Assembly: GCA_964248365.1 (NCBI GenBank)
Contig: CAXTYC010000011.1
Location: forward strand, 1-64,000
Length of the DNA stretch: 64,000 nucleotides
Direction: 5' to 3'
From: an uncultured Chroococcidiopsis sp.
GTDB taxonomy: Bacteria; Cyanobacteriota; Cyanobacteriia; Cyanobacteriales; Chroococcidiopsidaceae
Shown: in pieces, positions 29,971 through 57,552 of the stretch
Position numbering within the stretch: the first letter of the stretch is position 1
How the letters are laid out: each line of letters starts with the position of its first letter
Position numbers and translations under genes: made by a program
Notes under the pieces: model-generated
What the model saw: only the letters and a program-made list of their open reading frames with translations
The model's database searches: none
What the model was told of the DNA's origin: nothing

Positions 29971-30561
29971 TTGGGGAGCTTTAATACTCATGAGTCAATC
30001 AGTTACTACACCATTCAAGCTTACAAAGAGTTAGAAAAGTTTTATTCGAGTCCAAATCAAACTTCTCACGCTACGAATTACTCGACTAATACATCTAATA
30101 CTGCTAATACTGCTAATACATCTAATACTGCTAATACATCTAATAGCCCAACTACCATTCGGTTATACCTGCGCCGATACCTGGGCAGCATTATTGCAAT
30201 AGTGGTTGTGGTGAATGTTGTAAATGTTGTTGCTTTGGTCTTCATGACATCACGTAATTCTAGTTCTAAAAATAATTCCAGTCCTCCAATTGCTTCGAGT
30301 CCTCCTCCAATTGCTTCGAGTCCTCCAACTGCTTCTAATCTTCACCAACCACAATAGTGCCGTATTATTGCGCCTACAGTGGGGACAAGTGCTAGATTAT
30401 TTACTCAACCTTCTTCATACGCTGATACAGGTAAAAGAATCCCTCAAGATACGAGAGTCTCATTTCTTGGAGAGATGCGTGAATTTGCCGAGATTAGTTT
30501 GAGCGATCGCACGACGGGTTGGGTGTTCAACGATCAAATACGTCCTTGTACTAATCCTTAA
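29971..30561 (+). pseudogene. Membrane-anchored protein with SH3-like C-terminal domain, split by an in-frame TAG
   Basis: Track ORFs 29971-30357 and 30379-30561 share one frame; read-through gives HQPQ*CRIIAPTVGTSARLF...TTGWVFNDQIRPC; true 5' end unclear. Confidence 0.65.
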
Positions 30562-30584
30562 ATAGATTTGTTCATAAATGAAAT

Positions 30585-31187: not shown

Positions 31188-31198
31188 CTAAAAAATTA

Positions 31199-31255
31199 GT
31201 AGGGTGGGCATTGCCCACCATCCAAATTTAATATAGTGGGCAATGCCCACCCTAC
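31199..31255. repeat. Inverted REP doublet (REPIN/BIME-like)
   Basis: gtagggtgggcattgcccacc...gtgggcaatgcccaccctac. Confidence 0.85.
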
Positions 31256-31256
31256 T

Positions 31257-31294
31257 AAAATAAGAGAGGCGGATAATTCCGCCTCTCTTATTTT
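31257..31294 (-). terminator. Rho-independent terminator downstream of rbcS
   Basis: aaaataagagaggcgga-taat-tccgcctctcttatttt, perfect stem with A/T flanks. Confidence 0.8.
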
Positions 31295-31337
31295 GGGAAT
31301 TACTTACATTCCCTTAATTTTTTTCAATTCTTCAGCT

Positions 31338-31673
31338 TTAGTATCTGCCTTGATTTGGCTTGTGGACGATAAAGCTGAGGATTTGGCACTGCTTGATGTT
31401 ATCGAAACCAACTACACGAATGTAGCAGTTGGAATACTGAGAACGGCAAGATTGTACTTCGCTCAACACTTCTTGAGTGCTTCTAGCGTTGAACAAAGGT
31501 AGCTTCCACATTGTCCAGTAGAATTCTGTTGGATCAGACTTTTCGTTAAACTCAATCGCTGGAATATAACCCTGATTTAAAATGTACTGGATCTGCTTGG
31601 CTATTTGAGCATCGCTGAGGGGAGGTAGATAGGATAGAGTTTCGTACCGACGCTCTTTTGGTAGAGTTTGCAT
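31338..31673 (-). CDS. rbcS: Rubisco small subunit
   Basis: [27 protein letters not shown]. Confidence 0.99.
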
Positions 31674-31723
31674 AACTTACAAAGATGTGTTTTGCTTTTG
31701 TGACTTCGATTTACAATTGGGGG

Positions 31724-32134
31724 CTAACTGGATAGGTTATCCAAATTAGTCTCGGAGGTGGATTGCTGTTCGGGATTAGAGCTGGGGGTGGATATATCCA
31801 GTTGCGTGATTCGCTCTAGATGCTGCTTACGGTGTTCCATGTTCGCTTGTTGAATTCCAGCCAGAACCATTTCTGGCAAGAATTCAACTACTTCCTGCGC
31901 TAAGTGTTCCCTGACAATCATGATCCTTAAAGCCAAATCTGGCTTTTCTTGGAACAGGCTTTTAAGGTATGCTTCTCCATCCTGAATTTTGTCTCTTGAG
32001 GAAAAGCGATGCAGCCAAAGTGCCAAAGGAGGATTGGTTTCGCTAATCTGAGCCAGAACAGTCCGCACTGCCTGATATGTCAGGTAGCTAGAGAGCGTCT
32101 TGGCTGTGTCTTTCGCAATTTGTTTTAGATCCAT
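31724..32134 (-). CDS. rbcX: Rubisco chaperone RbcX
   Basis: IAKDTAKTLSSYLTYQAVRTV; located between rbcL and rbcS. Confidence 0.98.
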   Translation of the reverse strand: MDLKQIAKDTAKTLSSYLTYQAVRTVLAQISETNPPLALWLHRFSSRDKIQDGEAYLKSLFQEKPDLALRIMIVREHLAQEVVEFLPEMVLAGIQQANMEHRKQHLERITQLDISTPSSNPEQQSTSETNLDNLSS

Positions 32135-32219
32135 GCCCCAGCCCCAGCCTTTTGAAGGATGAAGGATGAAGGATGAAGTAATTCTAATTCAGCCTTCAGC
32201 CTTCTCACTTCAGCCTTTA

Positions 32220-33650
32220 TTAGACGGTATCCATTGCCTCGAACTCGAACTTGATTTCCTTCCACAGTTCGCAAGCGGCTGCTAGTTCAGGACTCCACTT
32301 GCAAGCTTCACGGATCACGTCGTTACCTTCACGGGCGAGGCTGCGACCTTCGTTACGAGCTTGGATACAAGCTTCCAAAGCCACACGGTTAGCGGTTGCA
32401 CCAGGCGCGTTACCCCAAGGGTGTCCAAGTGTACCACCACCGAATTGTAGTACGGAGTCATCACCAAAGATTTCTACCAGTGCTGGCATATGCCATACGT
32501 GGATACCACCGGAAGCAACTGCCATTACACCTGGCATAGAAGCCCAATCTTGGGTGAAGTAGATACCGCGAGACTTGTCTTGCTCAACGTAGTTTTCACG
32601 CAATAGGTCAACGAAACCCATTGTAATACCACGCTCACCTTCGAGCTTACCTACAACGGTTCCGGTGTGGATGTGATCGCCACCAGACATCCGCAGAGTC
32701 TTAGCCAAAACACGGAAGTGAATACCGTGATTCTTTTGACGGTCGATTACGGCGTGCATAGCACGGTGGATGTGCAGCAACAAACCGTTGGCGCGACACC
32801 AGTGAGCCAAGGTTGTGTTGGCTGTGAAACCTGCTGTTAGGTAGTCGTGCATAATGATGGGCATTTTGAGTTCTTTAGCGAACTCAGCCCGCTGCAACAT
32901 TTGTTCGCAGGTGGGGGCGGTGACGTTGAGGTAGTGTCCTTTGATTTCACCTGTTTCTGCTTGTGCCTTGTGGATCGCGTCAGCTACAAACAGGAAGCGA
33001 TCGCGCCATCTTTGGAATGGTGCTGAGTTGATGTTTTCGTCGTCTTTGGTGAAGTCCAAACCACCGCGCAGACACTCATATACAGCGCGTCCGTAGTTCT
33101 TAGCAGACAAACCTAGTTTGGGTTTGATCGTGCAACCGAGTAAGGGACGACCGTATTTATTTAACTTGTCGCGCTCAACTTGGATACCGTGAGGAGGACC
33201 TTGGAATGTCTTCAGGTAAGCTACAGGAATCCGCAAGTCTTCTAGACGCAGAGCGCGTAGAGCTTTGAAACCAAATACGTTACCTACAATCGAGGTCAAC
33301 ATATTGGTAACGGAGCCTTCTTCAAACAGATCCAGGGGATAGGCAACGTAGCAAATAAACTGGTTGTCGTCGCCAGGAACTGGTTCAATATCGTAACAAC
33401 GACCTTTGTAGCGATCTAGGTCGGTCAGCAAGTCAGTCCATACGGTTGTCCAAGTACCAGTAGACGATTCTGCTGCTACTGCTGCTCCAGCTTCTTCGGG
33501 GGGAACTCCTGGCTGAGGAGTGACGCGGAATGCCGCCAAGATATCTGTATCTTTTGGTGTGTAATCTGGGGTGTAGTAAGTTAGTCTGTAATCCTTAACC
33601 CCTGCCTGATACCCAGTTTTGGTCTGAGTCCTTGTTTGAGCGTAAGACAT
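32220..33650 (-). CDS. rbcL: Rubisco large subunit, form IB
   Basis: [11 protein letters not shown] active-site motif; start MSYAQT at ATG 33650 (476 aa). Confidence 0.99.
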
Positions 33651-33777
33651 AATTCCCTTCCAAGAAGTCACTCTCTTCCACTTGCTAAAATCGCAAGTTT
33701 TTCTTGCTTACTAGCAAGTTCTTCACAATAATATCAAGATTCAGATAAGTTATTCTTCGATAGTTTTTAATTTACCT

Positions 33778-33792
33778 ATAAGTTTTATTTAT
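33778..33792. promoter_or_regulatory. Putative LysR (CmpR/CbbR-type) site upstream of rbcL
   Basis: ATAA-N7-TTAT (T-N11-A dyad) in an AT-rich region; could be chance. Confidence 0.35.
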
Positions 33793-34091
33793 TTTATGTT
33801 AAATATCGTTAAAATCAGTTATAGTTATTTAAATAAATTAACAATAAAAGAGTTAAAATTGTGTATGAGCAGCCTGTAATGACTAAATGTTCGTTGTAAT
33901 GTTACAAACGCTTAAAATAATTTAACTTATACTTACATATTGCAGCAAAAGAAGTTTATTGCAAATCTCGCCTTTGAACTTCCTTTCAAAGAACCAAAGC
34001 TCAAGTTCATTAAAATAAACGAGAAAGGCATTCCAAAGCTACTGGTTCCTTGGGTTTAAACTCCTGGCGGGTGCGACTAAATAAAACTGAT

Positions 34092-34865
34092 ATGGCAGTT
34101 ACAACCTGGCAATTGATGCAATTGAAACAACAAGGTCGCCCAATTGTGGCTTTGACAGCTTGGGACTATGCCACAGGTCGATTATTGGATGCAGCTGGAG
34201 TAGATTTAATTTTGGTGGGGGATACTTTGGCAGTGATGCTGGGGTATGAAACGACGCTACCAGTAACACTGGAGGAAATAATTCACCATGCTTCATCTGT
34301 GCGTCGAGGTGTGAAACGAGCTTTATTAGTGGTAGATTTGCCGTTTTTGACTTATCAGGAAAGCAGTGGGCAAGCAATGCATTCGGCTGGTAGGGTGTTG
34401 AAAGAAACAGGCGCGCAAGCGGTGAAGTTGGAAGGGGGATACCCTGCGATCGCTCACACTGTGGAGCAATTAGTACAAGCTGGTATTCCCGTGATGGGGC
34501 ATATTGGTTTGACTCCCCAATCTATACATCAGATGGGGTTACGACAGCAGGGAAAGACACCACTAGCAGAAAAGAGGATTTTAGAACAAGCGATCGCCCT
34601 CGAACAAGCGGGAGCTTTTAGCATAGTATTAGAACATATGCCAGCCGAGTTAGCTTCCCAGATTAGTCAAAAGTTGACAATTCCTACTATTGGTATTGGT
34701 GCAGGACCCTACTGCGATGGTCAGGTATTAGTTACTTCTGATTTGCTAGGTTTGTCTGAACGGCAACCACCGTTTGCTAAAGTATATGTAAATTTAAGTG
34801 AAGCAATTACTCAGGCTGTACAAAGTTATGCTGTTGAGGTGCGAGAGCATAAGTTTCCAAAATAG
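34092..34865 (+). CDS. panB: Ketopantoate hydroxymethyltransferase
   Basis: [35 protein letters not shown] 34092. Confidence 0.97.
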
Positions 34866-34946: not shown

Positions 34947-35010
34947 TTACGGGCGGGTTGATCAGACATACTTGTGAACAAACAGATAACTTGTTTAAAC
35001 CCGCTTCTAC
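34947..35010 (-). repeat. GTAG-ended element overlapping the NRPS3 stop codon
   Basis: Minus strand reads gtagaagcgggtttaaac...caacccgcccgtaa; its TAG (35009-35007) is the stop. Confidence 0.65.
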
Positions 35011-38000
35011 CTAGTCCCTGCTAAATACTTGTGCAACTGTTGAGCAAGTACCTGAACATGGGGCTTTCTGAGCATAGTCAGGTGATTACCAGGAATGAAG
35101 TGAACTTGTACACCGGACGACGTTGCTAGTTGGCTCCAGCCTAAAGTTGAATCATCAGATTTCTTTTGTGCAAGACTTGTTCTAAATAGAGCGATCGCAT
35201 TTGGGTAAGGTTGAGGTACGTACTTCAAGGTAGCTTCGCTATTGGCATAAAAAATCCTCATTAACCGATGAATAGTTAGCTCGTCCATCATTCGTAAAAG
35301 TGTTTCCTGGGGAATGAGATGGTTAATGGTTGCTCGTTCTAAGGAGGATAGCCATGTGTGAGGAGTAATAATTTTCTTGCTAATTAGTGACCAGTAATCC
35401 AGCAAGAACGGATAAATAGAGCGGGTTACTGTAGTTAGGAGAAACTTTAAACCATCGCACAACGAAAGTTGATTGCTGGCGACAGGAGCTAGGGTATCTA
35501 ATATTGCCAGCATCACTTGCTCTCCTGCTCGGTGTAACTGTTGCGCCATCTCATATGCCACTAAACCGCCAAAAGACCAGCCACCTAGTTGATAAGGTCC
35601 TTGCGGCTGCACCATCCGCAATGCTTTGATGTAGTGACTAGCCATATCCTCAATGCTAGTTAATGGTGAATGCAAACCGTCTATACCGTAGGGTTGCAGT
35701 GCGTAGAATGGCTGATCGGTTCCTAAATGATACGCGATCTCGTAGTAGGGTAAAACAACGCCAAAGATGGGATGGACGCAGAAAAATGGTGGTTTGTCAC
35801 CCGCGCTCTGGAGCGCTACTAAGGGAGACCACGTTAGGGGATCTTGGTTAGGATTTTCATGCTTGTCAATCAGAGGGGCAAATTGCTCAATGGTAGGTTT
35901 AGCAAATAGGTCAGATAAGGGCAAGTTTTGCTCAAATTGTTGATTTATCTGCTCTAATAAGTGGATTGCTTGTAGGGAATCTCCACCCAATTCAAAAAAA
36001 TTATCCTGTATTCCCACTTGCTCAAGCTTAAGGATCTTTGCCCAAAGCGAGGTCAAAGATGCTTCATTTGCAGTTCGAGGAGCAATCAAGGAACGATCTA
36101 TGTTACCAATAATCGGTTTTTTTAAGGCACTTCGATCTACTTTGCCACTAGGAGTCAGTGGTAGGCACGACAGTACTACAAAAGCTGAAGGAATCATGTA
36201 ATCTGGTAATTTTTCCTTCAGAAAGCTCCTCAGCTGGGCGGTTGTCAGTGTTAAATCTGAATTGAAGACCAGATAGGCTACTAGTTGTTTATTGCCATCA
36301 TCTTCACAGGCTATAATGTGGGCTTCTCGTACTGCTGGATTTTGGCATAATAGGCTTTCAATTTCTCCCAATTCAATACGGTAGCCGCGAATTTTAACTT
36401 GATAATCCAGCCGACCTAAAAATTCAAGATTGCCGTCGGGAAGGTAGCGGACTAGATCTCCGGTTTTATACAAGCGGGTAGGAGAAGGAGGGGGAGATGA
36501 GGGGATAAGGGGATGGGGAGACATTTCTACTCTCCCACTCTCCCCCTCTCCCACTCTCCCACTCTCCCACTCTCCCAAGAAGGGATTGGGAATAAATCGT
36601 TGTGCTGTTAAGTCTGGCTGATTGAGGTAGCCTCGTGCTAAACCTACTCCACCAATGTATAATTCACCTGGAATACCGATCGCAACAGGTTGGAGATGAG
36701 CATCAAGAACGTAGATTTGAGTGTTGGCGATCGCTCTCCCAATTGAGGATTTGTTGCTACTATCAGTTACACAAGCAACGGTAGACCAAACAGTTGTTTC
36801 CGTTAGTCCGTAGGCATTGAACAAGCGCCTCCCACCTGCCCAATGAGCCATGTCTGGTGAATAAGCCTCCCCCGCAGAAATCAAAGTTTGCAGTTGGGGC
36901 AATTGTGTCGGTGGTAAAGTCTTTAGTACGGCAGGCGGAAGGGTAGCATGGGTAATGGCGTGATGCCGTAGATAGGAAATCAATGCAGATCCTAAACGTG
37001 CTTCTTCTGGTATTAGGTAGAGTGTTGCACCTACGCCCCATGCCATGAGAATCTCAAAGATGGAGGCATCAAAGCCCAGTGAGGCAAATTGTAGAATACG
37101 GTGTTCTGGTTTGGTATCGAAGGTTTGTATCTGTGCTTGAGCTACATTGCACAGTCCAAGATGTTCGACCAAAACTCCTTTGGGTTGTCCGGTTGAGCCA
37201 GAAGTGTAAATTACATAGGCGAGATTTGTGGATGTTACGCCACTGATCGGATTTTCCCCGCTTTGTTGTGCGATGATTGGACGAGCGCGATCAAGGCAAA
37301 TTAATTGACAATTTTTACAATAGAGGTTATAATCTGCGGCTGATTCGTTAGAATCGTAATCCGCCCAGAAATTAATTTCCGAGCTAATAGCACAAGTGGG
37401 TTCAAACCTACTAGAACACGGATCGTTTGTTGGTTTTAATTGAAGGAAGCTATGAGACAGGGAATTTATTCCTTGTCTTTCATGGAAGGGGAATAGGGGG
37501 GCTAAGGATTGTTGCGTTAGCAGGATAGATACTTGGGAATCCTCTAACATGAACTTCAGGCGTTGGGGTGGATAGGTAGGATCTAAGGGTACGTAGGCTC
37601 CTCCAGCTTTGAGAATTCCTAAAATGCCCACTATCATCTCTATGGAACGCTCGATACAAATGCCGACTTTAACCTCTGGCGCTACTCCAAGTTTTTGCAA
37701 ATAGTCTGCTAGTTGGTTACTGCGACGATTCAATTCAAGATAGGTTAGTTGCTCATCTTGATAAACAGCTGCGATCGCGTTGGGGGTATTATTTACCTGT
37801 TCCTCAAATAATTGATGGATACACTGGGGGAGGCAGTAGGGAGTAGGGAGTAGCTCGAAAAACGAGATGTGGTTTCCTCTGCTCGGAACTTCGTAAGAGA
37901 GGGAGTAGGGATTTTCTTGACTATTGGCTCCCCGCTGATTCGTGTTGTTCCACTCAACTAGCAACTGATGGCGTTCGGTTGCTGTCAAGATTGGTAAACT

Positions 38001-39326
38001 TGCCAGTCTTTGATCGGGATTAATCACAATTCCTTCTAGCAGGGTTTGGAAATGTCCCAGCATTCGGGTGATGGTGCTGTGATCAAAAAGATCGGTACTA
38101 TAAATTACTTGCCCTTTCAACCCATTTGGGCTTCGCCACAGATGAAACTCTAGATCTAACCTGCTAGTACCGTTGTCAAACTCAAACTGACTCAAAGCTA
38201 GTCCAGGTAGCTCTAAAGCGGTAATCGGTGTGTTTTGCAAAGCGATCGCCACACAGAACAAAGGATGTCTGCTTGTTTCCCGCAGGGGGTGGAGTTCCTG
38301 CACTAACTTCTCGAAAGGCAAATCCTGATGAGCGATCGCTCCTAGTGTCACCTCGCGCACTCGTTTCAACAGTTCCCTAAACGTAGGGTTGCCAGATAAA
38401 TCTGTCCGTAGCACTAAACTATTGACAAAAAAACCGATTAATGGTTCTATCTCAGCACGATTGCGGTTGGCTATGGGTGATCCAACAGCAATATCTTCTT
38501 GCCCTGTGTAACGATATAACAACGTTTGAAATGCTGCCAGCAGGATCATGAACAGAGTCACGCCCTCTTGACTTAGTTCCTCCAGGGTTGCCGTTAGGCT
38601 AGTTGACAACTCAAAATTTTGGGTTGCGCCTCGGTAGCTAGGCTGGGCAGGTCGAGAATGGTCAGTGGGGAGATTTAAAATTGGAAGATCGGCTAGTTGC
38701 GATCGCCAGTAGGATAGTTGTGACTCTAGTACTTCCCCTTGCAACAATGAGCGTTGCCAGTGGGCGAAGTCAGCATATTGGATAGGCAGAAGAGGCAAAG
38801 GGGAAGGTTTGCCTGCATTGAAGGCAGCGTAAAGAGTGCCAATTTCTCGCACCAGAATGCCAATTGACCAACCATCGGCAATGATGTGGTGTAGATTCAA
38901 CAGCAGGATATAGTCAAATGCATCTATTTGGAATAATGTCAACCGTAGCAGAAGGTCTGCGCCCAGATTGAAGCTATGTTGTGAAGAGGCGATCGCTTGT
39001 TGTCTTGCTGCTGCTTCGCGCTCACTTGCGGGTAAATAACGTAAGTCTACAATCGGCAGAGATACACTTGCTTCCTCCACAATCACTTGATTGAGTTGTC
39101 CCTGGGTCATTTCAAAGGTTGTCCGTAAAACTTCGTGACGGCGCACAATTTCGTTAAATGTTTGCTCTAGGGCAGTAATATTGAGGTGTCCAGTTAGGCG
39201 AATAGCCGCGGATATGTTGTAAAAGGGATTTCCAGGCGCTAAGGAGTTAAGAAACCAAAGTCGCTGCTGAGCGAACGATGCAGGAAACACGAATTCATTG
39301 TTCAAGACAGAGCTGTTAGAAGTCAT
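35007..39326 (-). CDS. NRPS3: C-A-T-TE termination module
   Basis: HHIIADGWS; YTSGSTGQPKG; LYKTGD; GGDSL; GWSFG thioesterase; start taken at ATG 39326 (upstream track extension is STRR sequence). Confidence 0.95.
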   Translation of the reverse strand: MTSNSSVLNNEFVFPASFAQQRLWFLNSLAPGNPFYNISAAIRLTGHLNITALEQTFNEIVRRHEVLRTTFEMTQGQLNQVIVEEASVSLPIVDLRYLPASEREAAARQQAIASSQHSFNLGADLLLRLTLFQIDAFDYILLLNLHHIIADGWSIGILVREIGTLYAAFNAGKPSPLPLLPIQYADFAHWQRSLLQGEVLESQLSYWRSQLADLPILNLPTDHSRPAQPSYRGATQNFELSTSLTATLEELSQEGVTLFMILLAAFQTLLYRYTGQEDIAVGSPIANRNRAEIEPLIGFFVNSLVLRTDLSGNPTFRELLKRVREVTLGAIAHQDLPFEKLVQELHPLRETSRHPLFCVAIALQNTPITALELPGLALSQFEFDNGTSRLDLEFHLWRSPNGLKGQVIYSTDLFDHSTITRMLGHFQTLLEGIVINPDQRLASLPILTATERHQLLVEWNNTNQRGANSQENPYSLSYEVPSRGNHISFFELLPTPYCLPQCIHQLFEEQVNNTPNAIAAVYQDEQLTYLELNRRSNQLADYLQKLGVAPEVKVGICIERSIEMIVGILGILKAGGAYVPLDPTYPPQRLKFMLEDSQVSILLTQQSLAPLFPFHERQGINSLSHSFLQLKPTNDPCSSRFEPTCAISSEINFWADYDSNESAADYNLYCKNCQLICLDRARPIIAQQSGENPISGVTSTNLAYVIYTSGSTGQPKGVLVEHLGLCNVAQAQIQTFDTKPEHRILQFASLGFDASIFEILMAWGVGATLYLIPEEARLGSALISYLRHHAITHATLPPAVLKTLPPTQLPQLQTLISAGEAYSPDMAHWAGGRRLFNAYGLTETTVWSTVACVTDSSNKSSIGRAIANTQIYVLDAHLQPVAIGIPGELYIGGVGLARGYLNQPDLTAQRFIPNPFLGEWESGRVGEGESGRVEMSPHPLIPSSPPPSPTRLYKTGDLVRYLPDGNLEFLGRLDYQVKIRGYRIELGEIESLLCQNPAVREAHIIACEDDGNKQLVAYLVFNSDLTLTTAQLRSFLKEKLPDYMIPSAFVVLSCLPLTPSGKVDRSALKKPIIGNIDRSLIAPRTANEASLTSLWAKILKLEQVGIQDNFFELGGDSLQAIHLLEQINQQFEQNLPLSDLFAKPTIEQFAPLIDKHENPNQDPLTWSPLVALQSAGDKPPFFCVHPIFGVVLPYYEIAYHLGTDQPFYALQPYGIDGLHSPLTSIEDMASHYIKALRMVQPQGPYQLGGWSFGGLVAYEMAQQLHRAGEQVMLAILDTLAPVASNQLSLCDGLKFLLTTVTRSIYPFLLDYWSLISKKIITPHTWLSSLERATINHLIPQETLLRMMDELTIHRLMRIFYANSEATLKYVPQPYPNAIALFRTSLAQKKSDDSTLGWSQLATSSGVQVHFIPGNHLTMLRKPHVQVLAQQLHKYLAGTR
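37361..37478. repeat. In-frame degenerate copy of the 6080-6243 multi-hairpin element within the NRPS3 A domain
   Basis: ccgcccagaaattaatttccgagctaatagcacaagt...agctatgagacagggaatttattccttgtct parallels the reverse complement of 6103-6220 (gggctaatagctcaagt). Confidence 0.6.
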
Positions 39327-39401
39327 AGTAATTCGTAATTCGTAATTCGTAATTGTCCCCTTGTCCCCTTGTCCCCACAGCGAACCCTCTCCCACTCTCC
39401 C

Positions 39402-42400
39402 CTACTCCCTCTTTGGGTTGAGTGAAGAGCGTAGGCGGCGATGAGCATCACGAGAAAGAGGAACAATCCCTGGATCTTGTTGTTTTACCTGCACAGTTTG
39501 TAATTCTTCAATAACTTTGGCAAGTGGGGCGATCGCTTTTTCTTCAAACACACTGCGTAAAGGTAACTCTACACCGAAGGCATCGCGGATACGGGAGATG
39601 AGCAAAGTTGCTAGTAGTGAATGTCCCCCAAGATCAAAGAAGTTGTCATGAATCCCCACGCGCTTGATTCCTAGTAGATCAGCCCAAATACTTGCCAATT
39701 TCTGCTCAATGGGCGATCGCGGTGCAGCAACATCCCCCCAATCTCTTTTCACCAAGAAGGGTGCACTTAGCGCACGACGGTTAACTTTGCCGTTGGCACT
39801 CAGAGGTAGTGCGTCCAACACCACAAAGGCAGAAGGAACCATATATTCAGGTATATTTTGCTCTAAGTAACTTTGTAGTTGGGACGGAAGGTGACGAGCG
39901 AACTGTGCCTGTAAAGGATTATTTGCATAAGTTTCCCAAGCACGAGCTGACACCTGCTCTTGTAATTGCCCTAACACAATCCTTTTTGTTACAGATTGGG
40001 GAAGAAAAATTACATCATAAGAACCTGTGGTATCTGCATTTGACCAACTCACGTCAACTGTATAAGGTAGTTCGGCGGCTAGGTTCCACCAATCTTGTGG
40101 ATCAATGGCTGATTGTGCAAGCGGATGTAGCGCATCGCGCATTTGACCTGCGGTTTTAGGTGCTTCCGTTTCTGTCAACAACCATTCTGCCGTTTTGACT
40201 GCTGCAATGACACGGGCATTCGGAATTCCTGTGATCTTAAGTACAGATGGTTGAGTTTCAACTAGATGCTGACGCACCTTTACCATGCTCAAATTGTCCC
40301 CAGTCCAATTTAGTTGATCCCCCCTTTCCCCTTTGCCTTTTCCCTGCTCCCCTGGAGCTTCAATATGCAAAATCACGTTATAGCGAAACTGAGTCAATTC
40401 ATTGTGATATCGACCTGGTGTAAGCAGAACTTGAACATGACTAATTCTTTTCAAGCGCTGTTTTAAGGCGTGAAAGAAAGCCGGATCGATTACTAGTTCC
40501 GTTTCCTGAAATATCGCCCCTCTAAGTTGCTGCTGCAACTGCTCTCGACTAACAGTACTGTCTGCTTGATGTAATGCAACCGCAGCATGGAAAGCTGACA
40601 GCAGGGGTAGACTTCGCACATCTCCAATAAAGACAAAGCCACCAGGTCTGGCAGTATCAATTGCACACTCAAGTACTTGCAGTAGATAATCCAGGCTAGG
40701 AAAGTACTGCACAACCGAATTGAGAACGATCGCATCAAAGGTGTTTGCTTCTATACCTTCAAAGTCAGTCGCCATTTTCTCAAGCAACTTTACCCCAGGA
40801 ATTGCCCTGGTTGCTAATTGCTGCTCAAGGTATTGGATGGACACTGGTGAAAAGTCAGTTGCCCAGTACTGAGCGCAGTGTGGTGCAATTTGAAACAGCA
40901 GTAAACCTGTACCGCAACCAATTTCTAATACTCGCAGGGGCTGCAAAGCCAAAATCTGCTCTACGCGATCGCTCACCCATTGTCGCATTTCCAGGGCTGG
41001 TATGGGTTGACCTGTATAGCTACTATTCCAGCCTACAATATTGAAAGTAGAATCGCGCTCGATATCGGACTGGCGATAAGTCTGATCGTAGAGATTTTGC
41101 CAAGTCCTAATCTGCTCATTAGACAATAATTCTCGTTCCTGAGTGTAGTCCTGATTTGGTACAATGTAAGCGATGATGCGCTGATCTGATTGGTTCTCGT
41201 GGGAGCGAGCGATCGCCACCGCTTCTCGTACTGTCGGATGTTGACGCAATAATGCTTCAATCTCGCCTAACTCAATCCGAAAGCCCCGAATCTTCACCTG
41301 ATCGTCAATGCGACCAACAAATTCAATATTTCCATCGGGAAGATAGCGGGCGAGATCTCCGGTTTTGTAAAGACGCTCGAAAGGATGAAGTGTAAAGGAT
41401 GAAGAAGGAAGTGAATTTTCTGTTTCATCCTTCATACTTCCTTCTTCAGCCTGTGTGAAGGGATTGGGAATAAATCGCTCGTGGGTTAATTCAGGACGGT
41501 TCAAATATCCTCGCGCCAGTCCATCACCACCAATGTACACCTCACCAACTACGCCAATCGGCACAGGTTGAAGGTGAGCATCTAGCAGGTAAATTTGAGT
41601 ATTAGCGACAGGACGACCAATGGAGGGCTTGTCATAATTGTTACCGGAAGCCGCGCTAATTGGGGCAACGGTTGCCCAAATTGTTGCTTCTGTTGGTCCA
41701 TAGGCGTTGAAAAAGCGACGATTTACAGCCCATTGCTTCACAATCTCGTTAGAACAAGCTTCACCGCCAGAAATGACCGTTTGCAGAGTTGGCAATTGTG
41801 CTGCTGGTAAAACTGCCAAAACCGCAGGGGGGAGTATAGTAGTGTCGATCGCCTTTGATTGCAAGAAATGAACTAATTCAGATCCAGGTAAACGGGCTGA
41901 TTTGGGAGGAATATGAAGGCTAGCACCAACTCCAAACGCCAACCACATCTCGAATATGGATGCATCAAAACCCAATGAGCTAAATTGCAGAATGCGATTT
42001 TGTGGTTGCATTTTGAAGGCACGAATTTGAGCTTCGATTACATTACAAAGCCCTCGATGCTCTACTAAAACGCCTTTTGGTTTTCCAGTTGACCCAGAAG
42101 TATAAATGACGTAAGCTAGGTTATTTGCTGTTACACGGATATTTAGAGTTTGCTCGCTGTAGGTGGCGATGGTTTCCCAATCAGTATCTAGGCAAATCAA
42201 TTTTAGATTTACGAATTGGGGTTTCCCCTCAAAAAGCGAAGCTAGCGATCGCTGTGTCAGGATAATTTTTACCCCAGTATCTTCTAGCATAAATGCGAGG
42301 CGATCGCTGGGATAATTTGGCTCAAGAGGTACATAAGCTCCCCCAGCCTTCAAAATCCCCAGTATACCTACTACCATATTGAGCGAAGGCGAGATACAAA

Positions 42401-44180
42401 TTCCTACTAAAACTTCCGGCGCAACGCCAAGTTTTTGCAAGTAGTGCGCTACTTTGTTTGCGCGTCGATCCAATTCCTGATAAGTTAATTGCTCATCTTC
42501 AAAAGTAACGGCAATAGCATCGGGCGTTCGTGCTGCTAAGTCCTCAAATAGTTCGTGACACAAGCGCTTTGGATAATTGCACTGTGTCTGATTCCATTCC
42601 ACCAGTAGCTGATGGCGTTCGGCTGCACTGGGTAGAGGTAAATCTGCAATTCGGGCATCGGGATTAGTAACAATGCCTTCTAACAGCGTTTGGAAGTGAG
42701 TAATAAATCGGGCGATCGTTGCAGCATCAAACAAATCTGTGTTGTATGCAACAAACCCACTCAGTCCTTCTGATGGTTCCTCCCACAACCCACTCAACCC
42801 GTGTCCACACTCCCACAAATGCAACTCTAGATCGAAGCGGGTAGTAGTGACATCAAACTTCAGTGGGTTCAGTGTCAAGTTGGGTAACTCCAGTTTTTGC
42901 ATCGGGGCATTCTGGAGAGCAAAGACGACTTGAAACAATGGGTTACGGCTGGGTTCTCGCAGGGGGTGCAACTCCTCCACCAACTTCTCAAAAGGTAAAT
43001 CCTGATGGTCGTAAGCTGCCAGTGTACGCGATCGCACTCGTGCCAAAAGTTCCCGAAATGTGGGATTATCGGATAAATCCACACGTAACACCAAGCTATT
43101 GACAAAAAAGCCGATTAATGCTTCTAGCTCACTGCGATTGCGGTTGGCAATGGGGATTCCGACTGCAATATCGGTTTGTCCGGTGTAGCGATATAACAAA
43201 GTTTGAAATGCTGCTAGCAGGATCATGAACAGAGTCACGCCTTCCTGACTTAGAGCTTCAAGGGAAGCAGTTAGGCTTTTTGACAACTCTATATATTGTG
43301 TTGCGCCTCGGTAGGTTGGATGTGCAGGGCGAGGTCGGTCAGTAGGAAGATTGAGGATCGGAAGATCGGCTAGTTGCGATCGCCAGTAGGACAGTTGCGA
43401 CTCTAGTATTTCCCCTTGCAACCATTGTCGTTGCCAGTGGGCAAAATCAGCATATTGGATGGGCAAAAGAGGTAAGGGAGACGGTTGATTTGCAGCAAAA
43501 GCCGTGTAGAGTGCTACTAGTTCTCGAATCAGCACACCCAGCGACCAACCATCAGATACAATGTGATGCAGATTTAACAACAGGACATATTCAGATTCGT
43601 CTAATTGCAACAACTTCACTCGCAGCAGCGGATCAGCAGCCAGATTAAATGGACGCGATGCTTCTTCTGTGGCAATTTGCTGGGCGGCTAATTGTCGCTC
43701 TAGGGCAGGTATATGCCGCAAATCGACAATAGGTAGAGATACATTGACGTTGGCAGAAATAATTTGAGCAGGTTGTCCGTCTACCTTGACAAAATTGGTA
43801 CGTAAGGCTTCATGACGACTGACGATCGCATTAAACGCAAGCGATAAAGCTTTTTCGTCAAGCTTTCCTTTGAGGCGAATCGAGAAAGGTACATTGTAGA
43901 AAGGATTTTCAGGTACTAACTGATCTAAAAACCACAATCGTTGTTGAGCGAATGACAGAGGTAATACGCGATCGCGTGACACGGGTACAAGCTGCACTCT
44001 TTTGAACTGAGAATTTGTCTGATGCAGCAGAGCGATCAAATCGGATTTGCGCTTGGCGATTTCGGCACGTAACTGAGGGGTTAACACTCCTTGGGGAGCA
44101 TTGCAGCGCAAGCTTTCATTTTCCAGGTAAACCTGAATATCTAGATCGCGTAGGTGAGCTAGAAATTCAACAGTGGTCAA
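39402..44180 (-). CDS. NRPS2: TubC_N-like docking domain-C-A-N-methyltransferase-T
   Basis: N-terminal FLAHLRDLDIQVYLENESLRCNAPQGVLTPQLRAEI; HHIVSDGWS; VLEIGCGTG and LNSVVQYFP N-MT motifs inside the A domain; GGHSL; TTG start overlaps the NRPS1 TGA. Confidence 0.95.
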   Translation of the reverse strand: MTTVEFLAHLRDLDIQVYLENESLRCNAPQGVLTPQLRAEIAKRKSDLIALLHQTNSQFKRVQLVPVSRDRVLPLSFAQQRLWFLDQLVPENPFYNVPFSIRLKGKLDEKALSLAFNAIVSRHEALRTNFVKVDGQPAQIISANVNVSLPIVDLRHIPALERQLAAQQIATEEASRPFNLAADPLLRVKLLQLDESEYVLLLNLHHIVSDGWSLGVLIRELVALYTAFAANQPSPLPLLPIQYADFAHWQRQWLQGEILESQLSYWRSQLADLPILNLPTDRPRPAHPTYRGATQYIELSKSLTASLEALSQEGVTLFMILLAAFQTLLYRYTGQTDIAVGIPIANRNRSELEALIGFFVNSLVLRVDLSDNPTFRELLARVRSRTLAAYDHQDLPFEKLVEELHPLREPSRNPLFQVVFALQNAPMQKLELPNLTLNPLKFDVTTTRFDLELHLWECGHGLSGLWEEPSEGLSGFVAYNTDLFDAATIARFITHFQTLLEGIVTNPDARIADLPLPSAAERHQLLVEWNQTQCNYPKRLCHELFEDLAARTPDAIAVTFEDEQLTYQELDRRANKVAHYLQKLGVAPEVLVGICISPSLNMVVGILGILKAGGAYVPLEPNYPSDRLAFMLEDTGVKIILTQRSLASLFEGKPQFVNLKLICLDTDWETIATYSEQTLNIRVTANNLAYVIYTSGSTGKPKGVLVEHRGLCNVIEAQIRAFKMQPQNRILQFSSLGFDASIFEMWLAFGVGASLHIPPKSARLPGSELVHFLQSKAIDTTILPPAVLAVLPAAQLPTLQTVISGGEACSNEIVKQWAVNRRFFNAYGPTEATIWATVAPISAASGNNYDKPSIGRPVANTQIYLLDAHLQPVPIGVVGEVYIGGDGLARGYLNRPELTHERFIPNPFTQAEEGSMKDETENSLPSSSFTLHPFERLYKTGDLARYLPDGNIEFVGRIDDQVKIRGFRIELGEIEALLRQHPTVREAVAIARSHENQSDQRIIAYIVPNQDYTQERELLSNEQIRTWQNLYDQTYRQSDIERDSTFNIVGWNSSYTGQPIPALEMRQWVSDRVEQILALQPLRVLEIGCGTGLLLFQIAPHCAQYWATDFSPVSIQYLEQQLATRAIPGVKLLEKMATDFEGIEANTFDAIVLNSVVQYFPSLDYLLQVLECAIDTARPGGFVFIGDVRSLPLLSAFHAAVALHQADSTVSREQLQQQLRGAIFQETELVIDPAFFHALKQRLKRISHVQVLLTPGRYHNELTQFRYNVILHIEAPGEQGKGKGERGDQLNWTGDNLSMVKVRQHLVETQPSVLKITGIPNARVIAAVKTAEWLLTETEAPKTAGQMRDALHPLAQSAIDPQDWWNLAAELPYTVDVSWSNADTTGSYDVIFLPQSVTKRIVLGQLQEQVSARAWETYANNPLQAQFARHLPSQLQSYLEQNIPEYMVPSAFVVLDALPLSANGKVNRRALSAPFLVKRDWGDVAAPRSPIEQKLASIWADLLGIKRVGIHDNFFDLGGHSLLATLLISRIRDAFGVELPLRSVFEEKAIAPLAKVIEELQTVQVKQQDPGIVPLSRDAHRRLRSSLNPKRE

Positions 44181-47100
44181 AATTCCACCTCCTCACGATT
44201 TGGACTGGCAATTGTCTCGGTATCAGCCTGTAATTTCTTATTTGCCCCACTCATTGCTTCAATATACTGTGCCAACGCTGCGATCGTAGGTGTCTCAAAT
44301 ATATTACGCAGTGGCATTTGTACCCCAAAGCGATCGCGGATTCTTGAAACTAGCTGCGTGGCTAAAAGTGAATGTCCACCCAACTCGAAGAAATTATCGC
44401 TGATGCCTACTTGTTGTCCTAAAATTTCCGTCCATATCTGCACTAACTGGGCTTCAACTGAAGTTCGCGGGAAAGATTTAATTTCTGGCAATCCAACTGT
44501 AGTAAAATCCGGTGGGGGGAGTTTTTGACGATCTACTTTACCATTGGGTGTTAGCGGCAACGACTCTAAGACTACAAAGGCAGCAGGTAGCATAGAACTT
44601 GGCAGCTTGGTCTTGAGGAAACTTTGTAGCTCGCTGGCTATTAGGTTTTGCTCCTGATTAGCAACTATGTAAGCAACTAAACGGCGATCGCCGGAGATAT
44701 CCTCCCTTACTACGACAACAGCTTCTTGCACTGCCGGATGCTGGTTTAAGACGGTTGAAATCTCGCCCAACTCAATCCGAAAACCTCGGATCTTCACCTG
44801 ATCATCGCTACGCCCAATAAATTCAAGATTGCCATCAGGAAGATAACGGGCGAGATCTCCGGTTTTGTAAAGTAGGGGCGGGCTTTTCAAGATTGTTTGT
44901 TTTCCAATAGGTATCTCTATTGAACCCGCCCCTACTAATGCGTTCTTTCCACAAAAAGGATTAGAGATAAACCGTTCATTCGTCAAATCAGGACGATTTA
45001 GATAGCCTCGCGCCAATCCATCACCACCTATATATATTTCTCCTATAACACCAATGGGGACTGGTTTTAGGTGGGGATCTAGTAGATAGATTTGGGTATT
45101 GGCGATCGCCCGTCCAATTGGAATTGATCGATCTGGTACATCTTGCACTTCATACCAGCAAGTAAATGTAGTATTTTCAGTAGGTCCATATACGTGTAGC
45201 AAATGTTCAGGCGCACCTTTGTGAACTTCTTTCACCCACCTCACGTCAACCGCTTCACCACCAAAAAGTAAGTAGCGCAATGAACTAAAAGCCGATGGAA
45301 CTTCCCGCGCCAAAGAGTTAAATAAGGCTGTTGTCAAAAACAGGACGCTGATTTGTTGCTGTCGAATCTCTTGGGCAAAGTCTTGGGGGGAAAGTATAAC
45401 GTCTCGATTGATACCAATTAATTGCGCTCCATTTAGAAGTGCGCCCCAAATCTCAAAGGTTGCTGCATCAAATGAAATGTTGGAGCATTGAGCGACTTTA
45501 TCTTCAGGTTCCCATGTGATGTAGTTAGTGTTGCACACTAATCGATTCACGGCTCGATGAGGTACTGCCACGCCTTTTGGTGTTCCCGTTGAGCCAGAGG
45601 TGTAAACTACATAGGCGAGGTTATCTGCGGTTGTCTGGTTACTTAGGTTTTCCTCGCTATAGTGCGCGATCGCTTCCCAATCCCTCTCTAGGCAAACAAC
45701 TTTTAGATTTTGGATTTTAGCTCCCCCCTTGATCCCCCTCCCGTCCCCCTTTTTAAGGGGGAAGCCAGAGGAAGCTACGCTATTAAGTTCACGGGGGGCT
45801 GGGGGGATCTGATTTTGGATTGATTTAGTCTGCTCTTTTAGAGAATTGATTTGTGAATCTTCACCAGTAGTCCCCAATTCAAAATCTTGCTGTGTTAGCA
45901 ATATAGATACCCCAGCATCTTCGAGCATAAACTGCAATCGCTCTGAAGGATAGGTTGGATCTAGAGGAATATAGGCTCCTCCAGCTTTCAGGATACCTAG
46001 CAAACAAGCTACCATTACAGGGGAAGGCTCCATACAGACACCTACCAACGTTTCACAACCTACACCCATTTTTCGCAAATAATGCCCCAGTTGGTTACTA
46101 CCGTTGTTTAATTCCTGGTAGGTAAATTGTCGATCTGCATAGCGCACTGCGATCGCATTTGGTTTTTGTGCTGCGATCGCTTCAAACAATTGGTGAATAC
46201 ATAGATTATTTGGATAATCACGCTCGGTTTGATTCCACTCAACTAAAAGCTGATGCTCTTGTGCGTAGCTCAAAAGAGGAAGATCTGCTAAATGGGTATC
46301 GGGATTAGCAACAGATCCAGTTAATAGCGTTTGAAAATGCCCTGCCATGCGAGCGATCGTATCCGCTTCAAATAAATCAGTGCTGTATACTAAAACACCC
46401 CGCAATCCCTCCGACTGCTGCCAAGAGTCCCCCCACAGGTTTCTAAAGTTTGAGCCACACTCCCACAGATAAAGCTCTAAATCAAACCGAGTGGTTGTCG
46501 TCTCAACCTGATAAGGCGAGAGCGTTAGCCCAGGTAGCTCTAATTGCTCCATTGGTGCGTTCTGAAGTGCAAACACCACTTGAAATAATGGATTACGGCT
46601 AAGGCTGCGTTCTGGGTGCAATTCCTCTACCAGCTTCTCGAAGGGTAAATCTTGATGAGCATAGGCTTCTACTGCAATCTTTCGCACTCGTAAGAGCAAT
46701 TCTCGAAAGGTAGGATTGCCTGATAGATCGGTTCGCAGAACTAAACTGTTGGCAAAAAAACCGATCAAGTTCTCCAACTGTTGCCGATTGCGGTTGGCGA
46801 TGGGCGATCCTACGGCTATGTCTGTCTGTGCGGTGTAGCGATACAGCAGTGTTTGAAAAGCTGCCAGTAACGTCATAAACAGCGTTACGCCTTCTTGCTG
46901 ACTCAGTGCCAAGAGTGCTTGGGATAAATCCTTGGGCAATTCTAGCAACTGGGTAGCTCCTCGGTAGCTTTGGGCTTGAGGGCGGGGGCGATCGCTTTGG
47001 ATCTCCAGTAAGGACAGATTCTTGAGCTGCGATCGCCAGTAGGACAGTTGCGACTCTAGCACTTCTCCTTGCAACCACGAGCGTTGCCAATGGGCAAAGT

Positions 47101-47662
47101 CTGCATATTGAATCGGCATTACTGGCGACGGTAAAGGTTTTTGGGCATATTCGGCAGTGTAGAACAATCCCAGTTCTCGAATCAGTAAGGCGATCGACCA
47201 CTCATCAAAGACAATATGGTGCAGATTGATAATTAGCACATACTCTGTTTTGTCTAGTTGCAGCAGTGTTACTCTTAGCAAAGGTCCAGTAGCTAGGTTA
47301 AAAGGCTGCCCGATCTCCTGTGTAATTAACCGTTGTGCTGCTGCATCTCGATCGCAAACACATTGCTGCTGTAAATCAATCAGCGACAGCGGTATTCTCT
47401 GGTGAGGCGCAATTATCTGTACAGGTTGCCCCTCCAAGGTTCCAAAGGTAGTACGTAATACTTCGTGGCGCTGCACAATCTGATTAAAGCTTTCTTCTAG
47501 CGCCACCAGGTTCAGATCACCTGTAAGGCGTATTACAGTTGGCACATTGTAGAACGAAGTGCCAGGAAATAACTGATCGAGAAACCAAAGCCGCTGTTGT
47601 GCAAATGATGCAGGAAAGACAAAAACTTCTTCAGAGTTGGGGGCTGCTCCTGCTTGGGTCAT
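44177..47662 (-). CDS. NRPS1: C-A-T (Ile-type A domain) with acidic C-terminal docking peptide
   Basis: HHIVFDEWS; YTSGSTGTPKG; YGPTENT; GGHSL; ends NREEVEF. Confidence 0.95.
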   Translation of the reverse strand: MTQAGAAPNSEEVFVFPASFAQQRLWFLDQLFPGTSFYNVPTVIRLTGDLNLVALEESFNQIVQRHEVLRTTFGTLEGQPVQIIAPHQRIPLSLIDLQQQCVCDRDAAAQRLITQEIGQPFNLATGPLLRVTLLQLDKTEYVLIINLHHIVFDEWSIALLIRELGLFYTAEYAQKPLPSPVMPIQYADFAHWQRSWLQGEVLESQLSYWRSQLKNLSLLEIQSDRPRPQAQSYRGATQLLELPKDLSQALLALSQQEGVTLFMTLLAAFQTLLYRYTAQTDIAVGSPIANRNRQQLENLIGFFANSLVLRTDLSGNPTFRELLLRVRKIAVEAYAHQDLPFEKLVEELHPERSLSRNPLFQVVFALQNAPMEQLELPGLTLSPYQVETTTTRFDLELYLWECGSNFRNLWGDSWQQSEGLRGVLVYSTDLFEADTIARMAGHFQTLLTGSVANPDTHLADLPLLSYAQEHQLLVEWNQTERDYPNNLCIHQLFEAIAAQKPNAIAVRYADRQFTYQELNNGSNQLGHYLRKMGVGCETLVGVCMEPSPVMVACLLGILKAGGAYIPLDPTYPSERLQFMLEDAGVSILLTQQDFELGTTGEDSQINSLKEQTKSIQNQIPPAPRELNSVASSGFPLKKGDGRGIKGGAKIQNLKVVCLERDWEAIAHYSEENLSNQTTADNLAYVVYTSGSTGTPKGVAVPHRAVNRLVCNTNYITWEPEDKVAQCSNISFDAATFEIWGALLNGAQLIGINRDVILSPQDFAQEIRQQQISVLFLTTALFNSLAREVPSAFSSLRYLLFGGEAVDVRWVKEVHKGAPEHLLHVYGPTENTTFTCWYEVQDVPDRSIPIGRAIANTQIYLLDPHLKPVPIGVIGEIYIGGDGLARGYLNRPDLTNERFISNPFCGKNALVGAGSIEIPIGKQTILKSPPLLYKTGDLARYLPDGNLEFIGRSDDQVKIRGFRIELGEISTVLNQHPAVQEAVVVVREDISGDRRLVAYIVANQEQNLIASELQSFLKTKLPSSMLPAAFVVLESLPLTPNGKVDRQKLPPPDFTTVGLPEIKSFPRTSVEAQLVQIWTEILGQQVGISDNFFELGGHSLLATQLVSRIRDRFGVQMPLRNIFETPTIAALAQYIEAMSGANKKLQADTETIASPNREEVEF
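44872..44935 (-). repeat. In-frame copy of the 64-bp GTAG-ended element in the NRPS1 A domain
   Basis: Minus strand gtaggggcgggttcaatagagatacctattggaaaacaaacaatcttgaaaagcccgcccctac, close match to 24210-24273. Confidence 0.88.
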
Positions 47663-48006
47663 CAAGGAATCTACCTGTGATCGCTTACTCTTTTTAACGG
47701 AGGTGAAGTATAAAATTGATCTACATTTAGATAGATTATCAGTTACCTGTTAGCTGTTAGCGGTTAGCTGTTGGCTGTTAGCTGTTATCAACTGCCAACT
47801 ACTAGTTACCTGTTATTTTTGTTGTATTATTAAATACAAAGATCATAGTAATTCTATTTAAGATTGATAAATATATAATTCTTACCTTAGATAGTTTAGA
47901 CTTATGCCATTTGGTTTAATTGCTGCAACAAATCTAAGAGCTAAAACTCTCTCCCACTCAGCCTTTCCTAATCCAAAATCTAAAATCTAAGATCTAAAAT
48001 CATATT

Positions 48007-49125
48007 ATGCTATTTACGCCCCTTAATTTCCTGCTTCAGTGGCTGACTGGACTCTTATCTATTGCACTACTGGGAGGAGGAATTTACATTGTCCATCAAT
48101 GGTATGAGCGAGAACTGATCGATCGCGCCTGGTTGATATTGGGATTAGCAATGTCTACCTGGTCGTTGGTGGGATTTCTTCCGGTTTCCTTGCTGCTGCG
48201 TCGTCCTGGTGCTGATGAACCAAAAGCAATGCGTAGCGGGATTGTACAACGAATAGCCCGACCAGACGGTAGCGAAATTCAAGTCGAGTTTTACGGTTCA
48301 CCCGATGCTCAACCAATTATCATGACTCACGGTTGGGGACCAAATAGCACTGTCTGGTACTACGCAAAGCGACAACTGGCTAACCATTTTCGCTTGATTG
48401 TATGGGACTTGCCAGGGTTGGGAAAATCTAGTAAGCCAAAAAACAAGGATTACTCAATAGAAAAATATGCTCGTGACTTGGAAGCAGTTATATCTCTGGC
48501 AGGTGACAAGCCTGTGATCTTGCTAGGACATAGCATGGGTGGTATGATTATACTCACATTCTGTCGCCTGTTTCCACAGTATCTAAATCGTCAGGTTGCA
48601 GGTTTAATTTTAGTAGACACTACCTATACCAATCCGGTCAAAACTTCCATCTTCAGCAAATTTCTACAAGCTATACAAAAGCCTTTGATAGAGCCTTTGC
48701 TGTATGTGGCGATCGCTCTGTCGCCTCTACTATGGTTAATCAGTGGCTTAAGCTATCTCAATGGTTCGATGCACATCACGACCGAAATATCTGGCTTCAC
48801 AGGCAAAGAAACACGAGGTCAACTCAACTTTTCAACCCTATTAGGTCTACGCGGCTCACCTGGCATACTAGCAAGAGGGATGCTGGCAATGTTGAAATTC
48901 AATGAAACGGCAACTTTGCCAACTATTAATATTCCAGCTTTGGTAATTGTAGGAAAAACAGACATCGCAACCGTTCCCGCAGCCAGCAAACATATGAGCA
49001 TTGACTTACCTCTGGCTGAACTTGCAATCCTACAACCTGCTGGACATATGGGATTAATGGAGCGAAACGAACAATTTGCCTCGCTAGTTCGTTCGTTTAG
49101 CACAGGCTGTTTAAGCTCCAAATGA
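48007..49125 (+). CDS. Membrane-anchored alpha/beta hydrolase
   Basis: Two N-terminal hydrophobic helices, THGWG, DLPGLG, GHSMGG nucleophile elbow, AGHM. Confidence 0.9.
   Translation: MLFTPLNFLLQWLTGLLSIALLGGGIYIVHQWYERELIDRAWLILGLAMSTWSLVGFLPVSLLLRRPGADEPKAMRSGIVQRIARPDGSEIQVEFYGSPDAQPIIMTHGWGPNSTVWYYAKRQLANHFRLIVWDLPGLGKSSKPKNKDYSIEKYARDLEAVISLAGDKPVILLGHSMGGMIILTFCRLFPQYLNRQVAGLILVDTTYTNPVKTSIFSKFLQAIQKPLIEPLLYVAIALSPLLWLISGLSYLNGSMHITTEISGFTGKETRGQLNFSTLLGLRGSPGILARGMLAMLKFNETATLPTINIPALVIVGKTDIATVPAASKHMSIDLPLAELAILQPAGHMGLMERNEQFASLVRSFSTGCLSSK

Positions 49126-57520: not shown

Positions 57521-57552
<32 letters not shown>

Follow-up and report, generated by a model that had tools for sequence, protein, structure and literature searches.

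Precedents exist both for iteration in nonribosomal peptide synthetase (NRPS) assembly lines, as in the rhabdopeptide NRPSs (PMC6195595), and for a growing chain being passed back, as in thalassospiramide biosynthesis (bioRxiv 10.1101/560987). Among the ways in which NRPS subunits dock, the trans-communication-mediating (trans-COM) class of the T-COM(D)/C type seats a linker and helix on a beta-hand, the donor being acidic and the acceptor basic (bioRxiv 10.64898/2026.08.07.743486; PMC9113145). Here we describe three single-module NRPSs, called NRPS1, NRPS2, and NRPS3, encoded in a 64,000-nucleotide stretch of DNA from an uncultured Chroococcidiopsis sp. (contig CAXTYC010000011.1, positions 1 to 64,000; hereafter the window). 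NRPS2 ends in a short basic tail, and NRPS1 and NRPS3 each begin with a short motif, the head, that matches it. We propose that NRPS1 and NRPS2 may form a two-protein ring yielding strictly alternating (Ile-NMeX)n chains, where NMeX is an N-methylated residue, with exit through NRPS3 or a fused thioesterase (TE) competing with each return. The tail and head would then belong to a portable docking class used by NRPSs, polyketide synthases (PKSs), and stand-alone methyltransferases of many bacteria, the link from NRPS2 to NRPS1 would be a charge-reversed, COM-like pair, and the loop could be read from the docking motifs. Taken as a whole, we judge this reading to fall slightly short of an even chance.

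Layout of the locus and the proposed loop

Open reading frame calling and Pfam matches placed the three NRPSs on the minus strand of the window. Their domain orders, built from condensation (C), adenylation (A), thiolation carrier (T), and methyltransferase (MT) domains, agree with the three monomodular proteins reported in a preliminary description of this DNA. Domains are numbered below by the protein that carries them (C1, A1, and so on). The relevant features are as follows.

44177..47665, minus strand: NRPS1, C-A-T, 1162 aa, likely start ATG 47662 (open reading frame calling and Pfam)
39402..44180, minus strand: NRPS2, TubC_N-C-A-MT-T, 1592 aa, with a TTG start overlapping the NRPS1 stop
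35007..39326, minus strand: NRPS3, C-A-T-TE, likely start ATG 39326, with the frame open from GTG 39395
47579..47632, minus strand: NRPS1 head EEVFVFPA plus C-domain core motif; FVFP is a predicted beta-strand contacting the NRPS2 tail
47201..47221, minus strand: C1 active-site motif HHIVFDE, residues 149-155, with Glu/Asp in place of Gly in 30 of 32 NRPS1-type proteins
44180..44200, minus strand: acidic C-terminal short motif of NRPS1, NREEVEF, the putative donor for a beta-hairpin docking domain
44019..44171, minus strand: TubC_N beta-hairpin docking domain, NRPS2 residues 4-54 (Pfam PF18563, E 1.6e-19, 70 bits against a cut-off of 26)
39405..39473, minus strand: basic tail of NRPS2 after T2, a linker-like IVPLSR followed by a predicted helix, DAHRRLRSS
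39249..39296, minus strand: NRPS3 head EFVFPA plus C-domain core motif, from the sequence

The junction elements named in the preliminary description were recovered. The TTGA stop/start overlap of NRPS1 and NRPS2 lies at 44180-44177, the acidic NREEVEF ends NRPS1 (EEVEF being its last five residues after the T domain, and kept in orthologues), and the TubC_N-like start of NRPS2 matches PF18563 above the cut-off. The basic end of NRPS2 reads GIVPLSRDAHRRLRSSLNPKRE, six residues longer than had been quoted. An internal stretch of NRPS2 reads LVPVSRDRVLPLSFAQ, and by this comparison the first half of the tail mimics an in-cis T-C linker. The statement that NRPS1 and NRPS3 share one head needed trimming: FVFPASFAQQRLWFL is common to both, but the acidic run differs (NSEEV in NRPS1 and VLNNE in NRPS3). 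Moreover, because 10 of the 15 shared residues are SFAQQRLWFL, a C-domain core motif that C2 has as well, only FVFPA is distinctive. The DNA encoding the two heads differs at 7 of 42 nucleotides and every change is synonymous, which argues that their identity is kept at the protein level and does not reflect a recent copy. Recent duplication as the source of the identical heads was ruled out on this ground and because C1 and C3 belong to clades that are ∼61–63% identical. The start of NRPS3 is most likely ATG 39326, since orthologues begin 10–17 residues before the motif and a genomic repeat occupies 39315-39417.

In the branched loop that these termini suggest, which we regard as having an even chance of being correct, NRPS1 would carry Ile or Val, NRPS2 an N-methylated residue X, and the chain would either return to C1 or exit through the TE of NRPS3. 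Needing no donor to start, NRPS1 would load its residue; the beta-hairpin domain of NRPS2 would receive the acidic end of NRPS1, as expected from knowledge of this family, and NRPS2 would add an N-methylated hydrophobic residue. Because a head matching the tail is present on both NRPS1 and NRPS3, the chain on NRPS2 would then likely go either back or forward. The structural model described below predicts binding of the T2 tail to an N-terminal C domain, at its linker groove and its head strand, with T2 at the donor site. Docking of T2 on C1 would add one more Ile-NMe-X unit, and docking on C3 would add a Phe-like residue followed by release. Such a line would be expected to make (Ile-NMeX)n-Phe, and relatives with a fused TE to make (Ile-NMeX)n; a ladder and one fixed extra round, the latter giving a pentapeptide that may be cyclic, are equally plausible. 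The Gly to Glu/Asp change in C1 may slow this domain enough to allow both initiation and re-entry.

Recurrence and retention of the tail and head

The genome assembly containing the window is 99.97% complete. It holds three C domains, two FVFPA-type heads, and eight carrier domains, and the tail is found after T2 only. Because of this, an upstream module for C1 encoded elsewhere, a possibility raised in the preliminary description, appears to be absent from the assembly, which has no further C domain and no further tail-bearing carrier. Sfp-type phosphopantetheinyl transferase (PPTase) motifs and a stand-alone acyl carrier protein (ACP) also occur in the genome. Its carrier proteins lacking a C domain, labeled from sequence reading, include an A-T-reductase-like protein near a PPTase (G000 C15:47762-50875), an acyl-ligase/T/TE protein among glycosyltransferase-like genes (G000 C23:19805-25051), an A-T protein (G000 C58:6352-10350), and a PKS-like set (C56:4365-16933).

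Pairing of the tail with the head extends beyond this NRPS family. A pattern scan of metagenomes for the head returned at least 109 stretches, on contigs of 39–72% G+C. All loci together gave 148 distinct junctions between adjacent genes, the first ending in a T domain and the second starting with a C domain, and the tail was scored with a profile built from this NRPS family alone (threshold score of at least 10). It was present upstream in 21 of 27 non-family junctions with an FxF head, compared with 0 of 58 beta-hairpin junctions and 4 of 41 others; these counts include related, non-independent sequences, and the heads in them came from pattern sampling. After clustering, the tail was found in 6/6 FxF junctions and 2/28 others, numbers that are small because single-linkage clustering merged most FxF junctions into one group. 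In an alignment of C domains, the columns marking those with a free head are F-x-F only, and NRPS1 carries them. Tails have charges of +2 to +4 and heads of 0 to -4, with the NRPS1 heads acidic in all 32 proteins (-1 to -4). One PKS ACP and two stand-alone methyltransferases located upstream of heads also end in the tail. These comparisons suggest a T-to-C docking pair that recurs across many bacteria, made up of the NRPS2-type basic tail and the FxF head.

Several of the metagenomic loci have distinctive arrangements. The two stand-alone methyltransferases, each 270 aa and ending in a tail-like motif (L161:778-1590 and L163:2104-2919, the latter on the minus strand), are each flanked by an A-T protein with a tail and a C domain with a head, and two proteins may compete for one head there. 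A locus from Gemmatimonadota (L030:3375-18658) encodes two donors with tails and, with heads, two C-A-T-TE proteins, and is a candidate for cross-talk. At L122, L137, and L157, one or two unrelated genes lie between the tail-bearing carrier, in one case a PKS ACP, and the next head. At L167, L177, and L178, the pair precedes a terminal C-A-T-reductase module, a layout that we take to recall the aeruginosin/spumigin lines and that could presumably provide a characterized forward use of the pair.

The preliminary description had suggested modeling T2 with its tail against the heads, and such a model is now in hand for C1. The model of C1 itself has a pLDDT value (predicted score in the local distance difference test) of 89, with FVFP forming a strand. 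A complex of C1 (residues 6-466) with T2 and the tail (residues 1485-1592) scored 0.62, compared with 0.00 for the best control. The mark for this score is reached by 116 of 157 solved pairs and 2 of 215 mismatched ones, a calibration that is rough here, own alignments having been used. At least 89% of contacts are shared between separate runs, and the partner pLDDT is at least 77. In the model, T2 and its tail lie on the donor face of C1, the T2 serine region contacts C1, IVPL of the tail is near QYADF of C1, and the tail Arg and His-Arg-Arg lie on Val-Phe-Val of the head. The predicted tail contacts fall at C1 residues 4-12, 70-79, and 179-188 of the modeled chain.

The trio, whose conservation the preliminary description had put up for checking, is a conserved cyanobacterial cluster. 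The cluster was found in 20/20 of the first relative regions. The trio is present in 12 of them, although a contig start truncates it in one and a gene is broken in two; a further 3 have NRPS3 elsewhere, and 5 have NRPS1 with an NRPS2-TE fusion; named records supplied further clusters, four fusions among them. The cluster is common: a C1-motif pattern matched 34 of 401 sampled genomes, and 20 regions among these matches comprised 11 orthologues, 8 unrelated loci, and 1 unclear case. Gene order is variable, with NRPS3-NRPS1-NRPS2 in six loci. Orphan tails give no additional test, because, where a free tail lacks a neighboring NRPS3, an NRPS3-like gene was found elsewhere in the genome in 5/5 cases. 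Individual loci show a 464-aa foreign open reading frame inside NRPS3 (L115), NRPS2 in fragments (L118), or split NRPS1 and NRPS2 (L332), in each case possibly by assembly error.

The nine NRPS2-TE fusions are 55–92% identical and form one clade in a tree, and a tree with seven of them indicates that their TE descends from that of NRPS3. C3-A3-T3 was therefore likely deleted once. The idea that these two-gene relatives refute the loop, having no free tail, was overturned by the finding that the tail is present inside the fusion, between T and TE, in all nine. Its mean pairwise identity is 72%, compared with 74% for the T core, 63% for the start of the TE, and 18–23% for the flanking linkers; among five deep representatives, the tail remains at 72% and the linkers fall to 6–17%. 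More than half (55%) of the codons for identical tail residues differ synonymously, and the His/Tyr, Arg, and Arg of the tail are retained in 9, 8, and 9 of the nine fusions. A requirement of the TE for the tail in cis is weakly disfavored: the T-TE linker of NRPS3 lacks the tail, and in a fold of T-tail-TE (shallow alignment) the tail, its helix included, stays below a pLDDT of 50. In the nine fusion genomes an exact head match occurs once per genome, on NRPS1, and matches with one mismatch included no true head (all but one inspected at the locus). Only the fusion matched a T-end/tail profile to position 55 or beyond of 60 in these genomes, and no free tail was present at the 27 of 30 matched loci inspected; in two of the genomes, those of Leptolyngbya sp. 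FACHB-60 (L005) and Nodosilinea sp. LEGE 06152 (L046), the profile gave two matches only, both in the cluster. The simplest reading of these sequence patterns is that the fusion tail is selected for binding C1.

The earlier suggestion that the NRPS2 tail hands off either back or forward is supported by the co-occurrence of the pair, the lack of another partner, the tail kept in the fusions, and the model, with condensation by C1 and variable product length being extrapolations from it. We consider pass-back through C1 to be about evenly balanced.

Condition of C1 and alternative explanations

C1 carries HHIVFDE in place of the canonical HHxxxDG found in C2 and C3 of the window. Among the 32 NRPS1-type proteins the motif ends at position 155 in DE (23), DD (7), or DG (2), and all 53 C2/C3 domains have DG. 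Of the 148 columns that C2 and in-cis C domains conserve, C1 retains 133 and C3 retains 137, and Gly155 is the sole universally conserved column altered in C1. The ratio of nonsynonymous to synonymous substitution rates (dN/dS) for C1 against the window is 0.09–0.13 in 5 of 6 pairs (one saturated), similar to C2 and C3. By these measures C1 is under purifying selection, and the conserved columns and dN/dS rule it out as a decaying relic. HHxxxDE is likewise found in unrelated multimodule proteins, where it lies on internal C domains (L323, L328). In the C3 domain of FscG it is active, orients the acceptor amine, and reduces acceptance of larger residues such as Leu (PMC8097023). From sequence we think that C1 likely retains activity, damped toward Ile; a leaky gate for re-entry and a first domain that is nearly silent would both be compatible with this. 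A basal metagenome lineage (L130, L139, L136, L188) has a canonical HHxxxDG in C1 and a Leu-type A1 code.

A damped C1 could also belong to a linear assembly line, in which it would not condense but would permit initiation by module 1 and keep the subunits joined, the tail binding the head of NRPS1 or that of NRPS3 only. The product would be a single tripeptide, or a dipeptide or diketopiperazine in the fusions. C1 differs systematically in its active site alone, C domains have structural roles as well, and the first module of tubulysin TubB reportedly has a silent N-terminal C domain. The disfavoring of bulky acceptors in FscG points the same way. However, C1 keeps both His residues, the Asp, and nearly all conserved columns, its dN/dS equals that of active C domains, HHxxxDE is active in FscG and present on the internal domains noted above, and two basal NRPS1-type proteins retain HHxxxDG. 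We regard a non-condensing C1 as unlikely, if the most serious competitor to the loop.

The position of C1 first in the line, together with the stand-alone ACP in the genome and the orientation of small acceptor amines by Glu at this motif position (PMC8097023), could instead suggest a starter or tailoring domain that acylates Ile from acyl-ACP or acyl-coenzyme A, or uses a small free amine, to give a linear acyl-tripeptide. Yet C1 falls together with C2 and C3 of its own cluster in a tree built without starter-domain references, and elongation domains are its closest relatives of solved structure. Next to the clusters listed no gene for acyl loading was seen, and retention of the tail in the fusions would be left unexplained. 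This role for C1 seems improbable to us.

Several points weigh against the loop. By analogy with FscG, HHxxxDE would disfavor bulky acceptors, and the acceptor here is Ile or Val. The fusions, going by their tree, are one event. Two heads have a tail-less carrier upstream (L141 and L224), so a head need not imply a tail. FVF is a confident strand even in the absence of a partner and could, from the model, be kept for folding. The complex model speaks for compatibility of T2 and its tail with C1, not for preference over C2 or C3, and its pass may reflect likeness, since T-C didomain structures exist (2JGP and 7KVW) and close cousins pass too. No product of the cluster was found in the literature. 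In addition, the Arg motif of the C2 linker is lost in 9/9 fusions but kept in 22/31 free-tail NRPS2 proteins, and an aromatic residue has been gained at the second C2 head position in 5/9 fusions compared with 1/31 free-tail proteins. On account of these changes C2 is a possible partner, and the kept fusion tail may bind C2 instead of C1. NRPS2 would then iterate on itself, the tail docking on C2 of a second copy to give Ile-(NMeX)n as in rhabdopeptides, with the NRPS1 head kept for folding. This explanation mainly concerns the fused forms; the first head Phe is found in 0/40 C2 domains, the C2 linker of the window is intact, and the NRPS1 heads are uniformly acidic. We consider it quite improbable, and the branched loop remains our preferred reading.

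Adenylation codes were extracted with a motif regular expression, which failed for 7 of 85 proteins and was partial for 3. The A1 code, DAFFLGVTFK, is the same in 27 of 32 distinct proteins and is of a type assigned to Ile/Val in cyanopeptolin (PMC2533009 Table 1), which bears out the Ile proposed previously, as Ile/Val. The A3 code of the window, DAFTIAAVWK (DAFT[IV]AA[VI]WK in 19 of 21 distinct proteins), equals the Phe(Me) code of the same table at 7 of 10 positions, and A3 therefore likely takes an aromatic, Phe-like residue. The A2 code is DAFIIGAIWK in the window and, among distinct proteins, either DAF[ILTV]IGAIWK, with no substrate assigned, or Leu-type. It splits with the C1 motif, Leu-type codes accompanying HHxxxDD and DAF[IL]IGAIWK accompanying HHxxxDE, and the resemblance of the latter code to that of A3 may reflect recombination. 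Galaxamide, considered as a lead for the product pattern, was dropped, the accessible part of PMC5039532 giving no N-methyl positions and there being no link to a producer.

One further gene of the window may be connected with the cluster.

48007..49125, plus strand: alpha/beta-hydrolase with a hydrophobic N-terminus and a GHSMG motif, a likely accessory gene

Nine of 35 cluster loci include this gene, often placed between NRPS1 and NRPS2, and it was found in 11 of 41 genomes searched, all 11 with cluster genes (one partial only). It is possibly an editing thioesterase, a peptidase, or a release enzyme. Short repeats occur at 39315-39417, 37826-37911, 44861-44939, 45707-45821, and 37338-37418, with 4–14 overlapping matches elsewhere in the genome. 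The first (up to 14 copies elsewhere) separates NRPS2 from NRPS3, and the other four are in frame within A-domain loops. Flanking regions (27685-34865 and 52581-61975) hold ordinary neighbors, among them genes for RuBisCO activase-like, ketopantoate hydroxymethyltransferase, alpha-amylase-family, and glucanotransferase proteins, and the flanks vary among relatives.

Comparison with described systems

If the loop is real, the length and sequence of the product could not be read colinearly from the cluster, and other looping lines would be recognizable in genomes by a short motif. The two-gene form in named strains makes pass-back directly testable. Loop aside, a 15-residue tail and 5-residue head joining T to an LCL-type C domain would offer an orthogonal docking pair for NRPS engineering. 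The literature searched, mostly open-access and not extending to the supplementary family tables of PMC4247773, gave no account of the cluster or of the tail/head pair; the trio may be one of the unnamed cluster families in that paper.

The junction between NRPS1 and NRPS2 looks like an ordinary member of the docking class that pairs a short linear motif (SLiM) with a beta-hairpin domain, as in TubB/TubC, EpoA/B, micropeptin, and cyanopeptolin. The same acidic motif/beta-hairpin pair is used by the rhabdopeptide/xenortide NRPSs (Kj12ABC; PMC6195595), which also have single-module subunits, one with an N-methyltransferase, and docking motifs common to several subunits that permit reuse. The analogy with these enzymes, drawn in the preliminary description, is nevertheless loose. 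In Kj12ABC one docking class joins all subunits in stochastic order and a stand-alone C domain releases the chain onto an amine. The trio, in contrast, has the beta-hairpin domain on NRPS2 only and the SLiM on NRPS1 only, a second, unrelated pair would govern the branch, and release would be by a TE in a genome with no other C domain. It thus lacks two defining rhabdopeptide features, docking elements on every subunit or donor and release by a stand-alone C domain, and its two different docking systems would impose strict alternation. A minimal C-terminal segment after T also mediates a T-to-C junction between PaxA and PaxB (PMC8251938), but the N-terminal docking domain of PaxB is a helical element of 30–36 residues, whereas the heads here are ∼10–20 residues with a beta-strand. 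Among described classes, trans-COM, as in balhimycin BpsA-C, is closest to the tail/head pair; it works forward and is partner-specific, and its charges are opposite to those of the trio, with its basic tail and acidic head. Thalassospiramide biosynthesis resembles the proposed loop in that a later module passes its chain to an earlier C domain and forward and backward routes compete. It differs in being a large multimodule NRPS-PKS system, in whose main text, as far as accessible, the word docking is absent, whereas here the return route would lie in a shared terminal motif.

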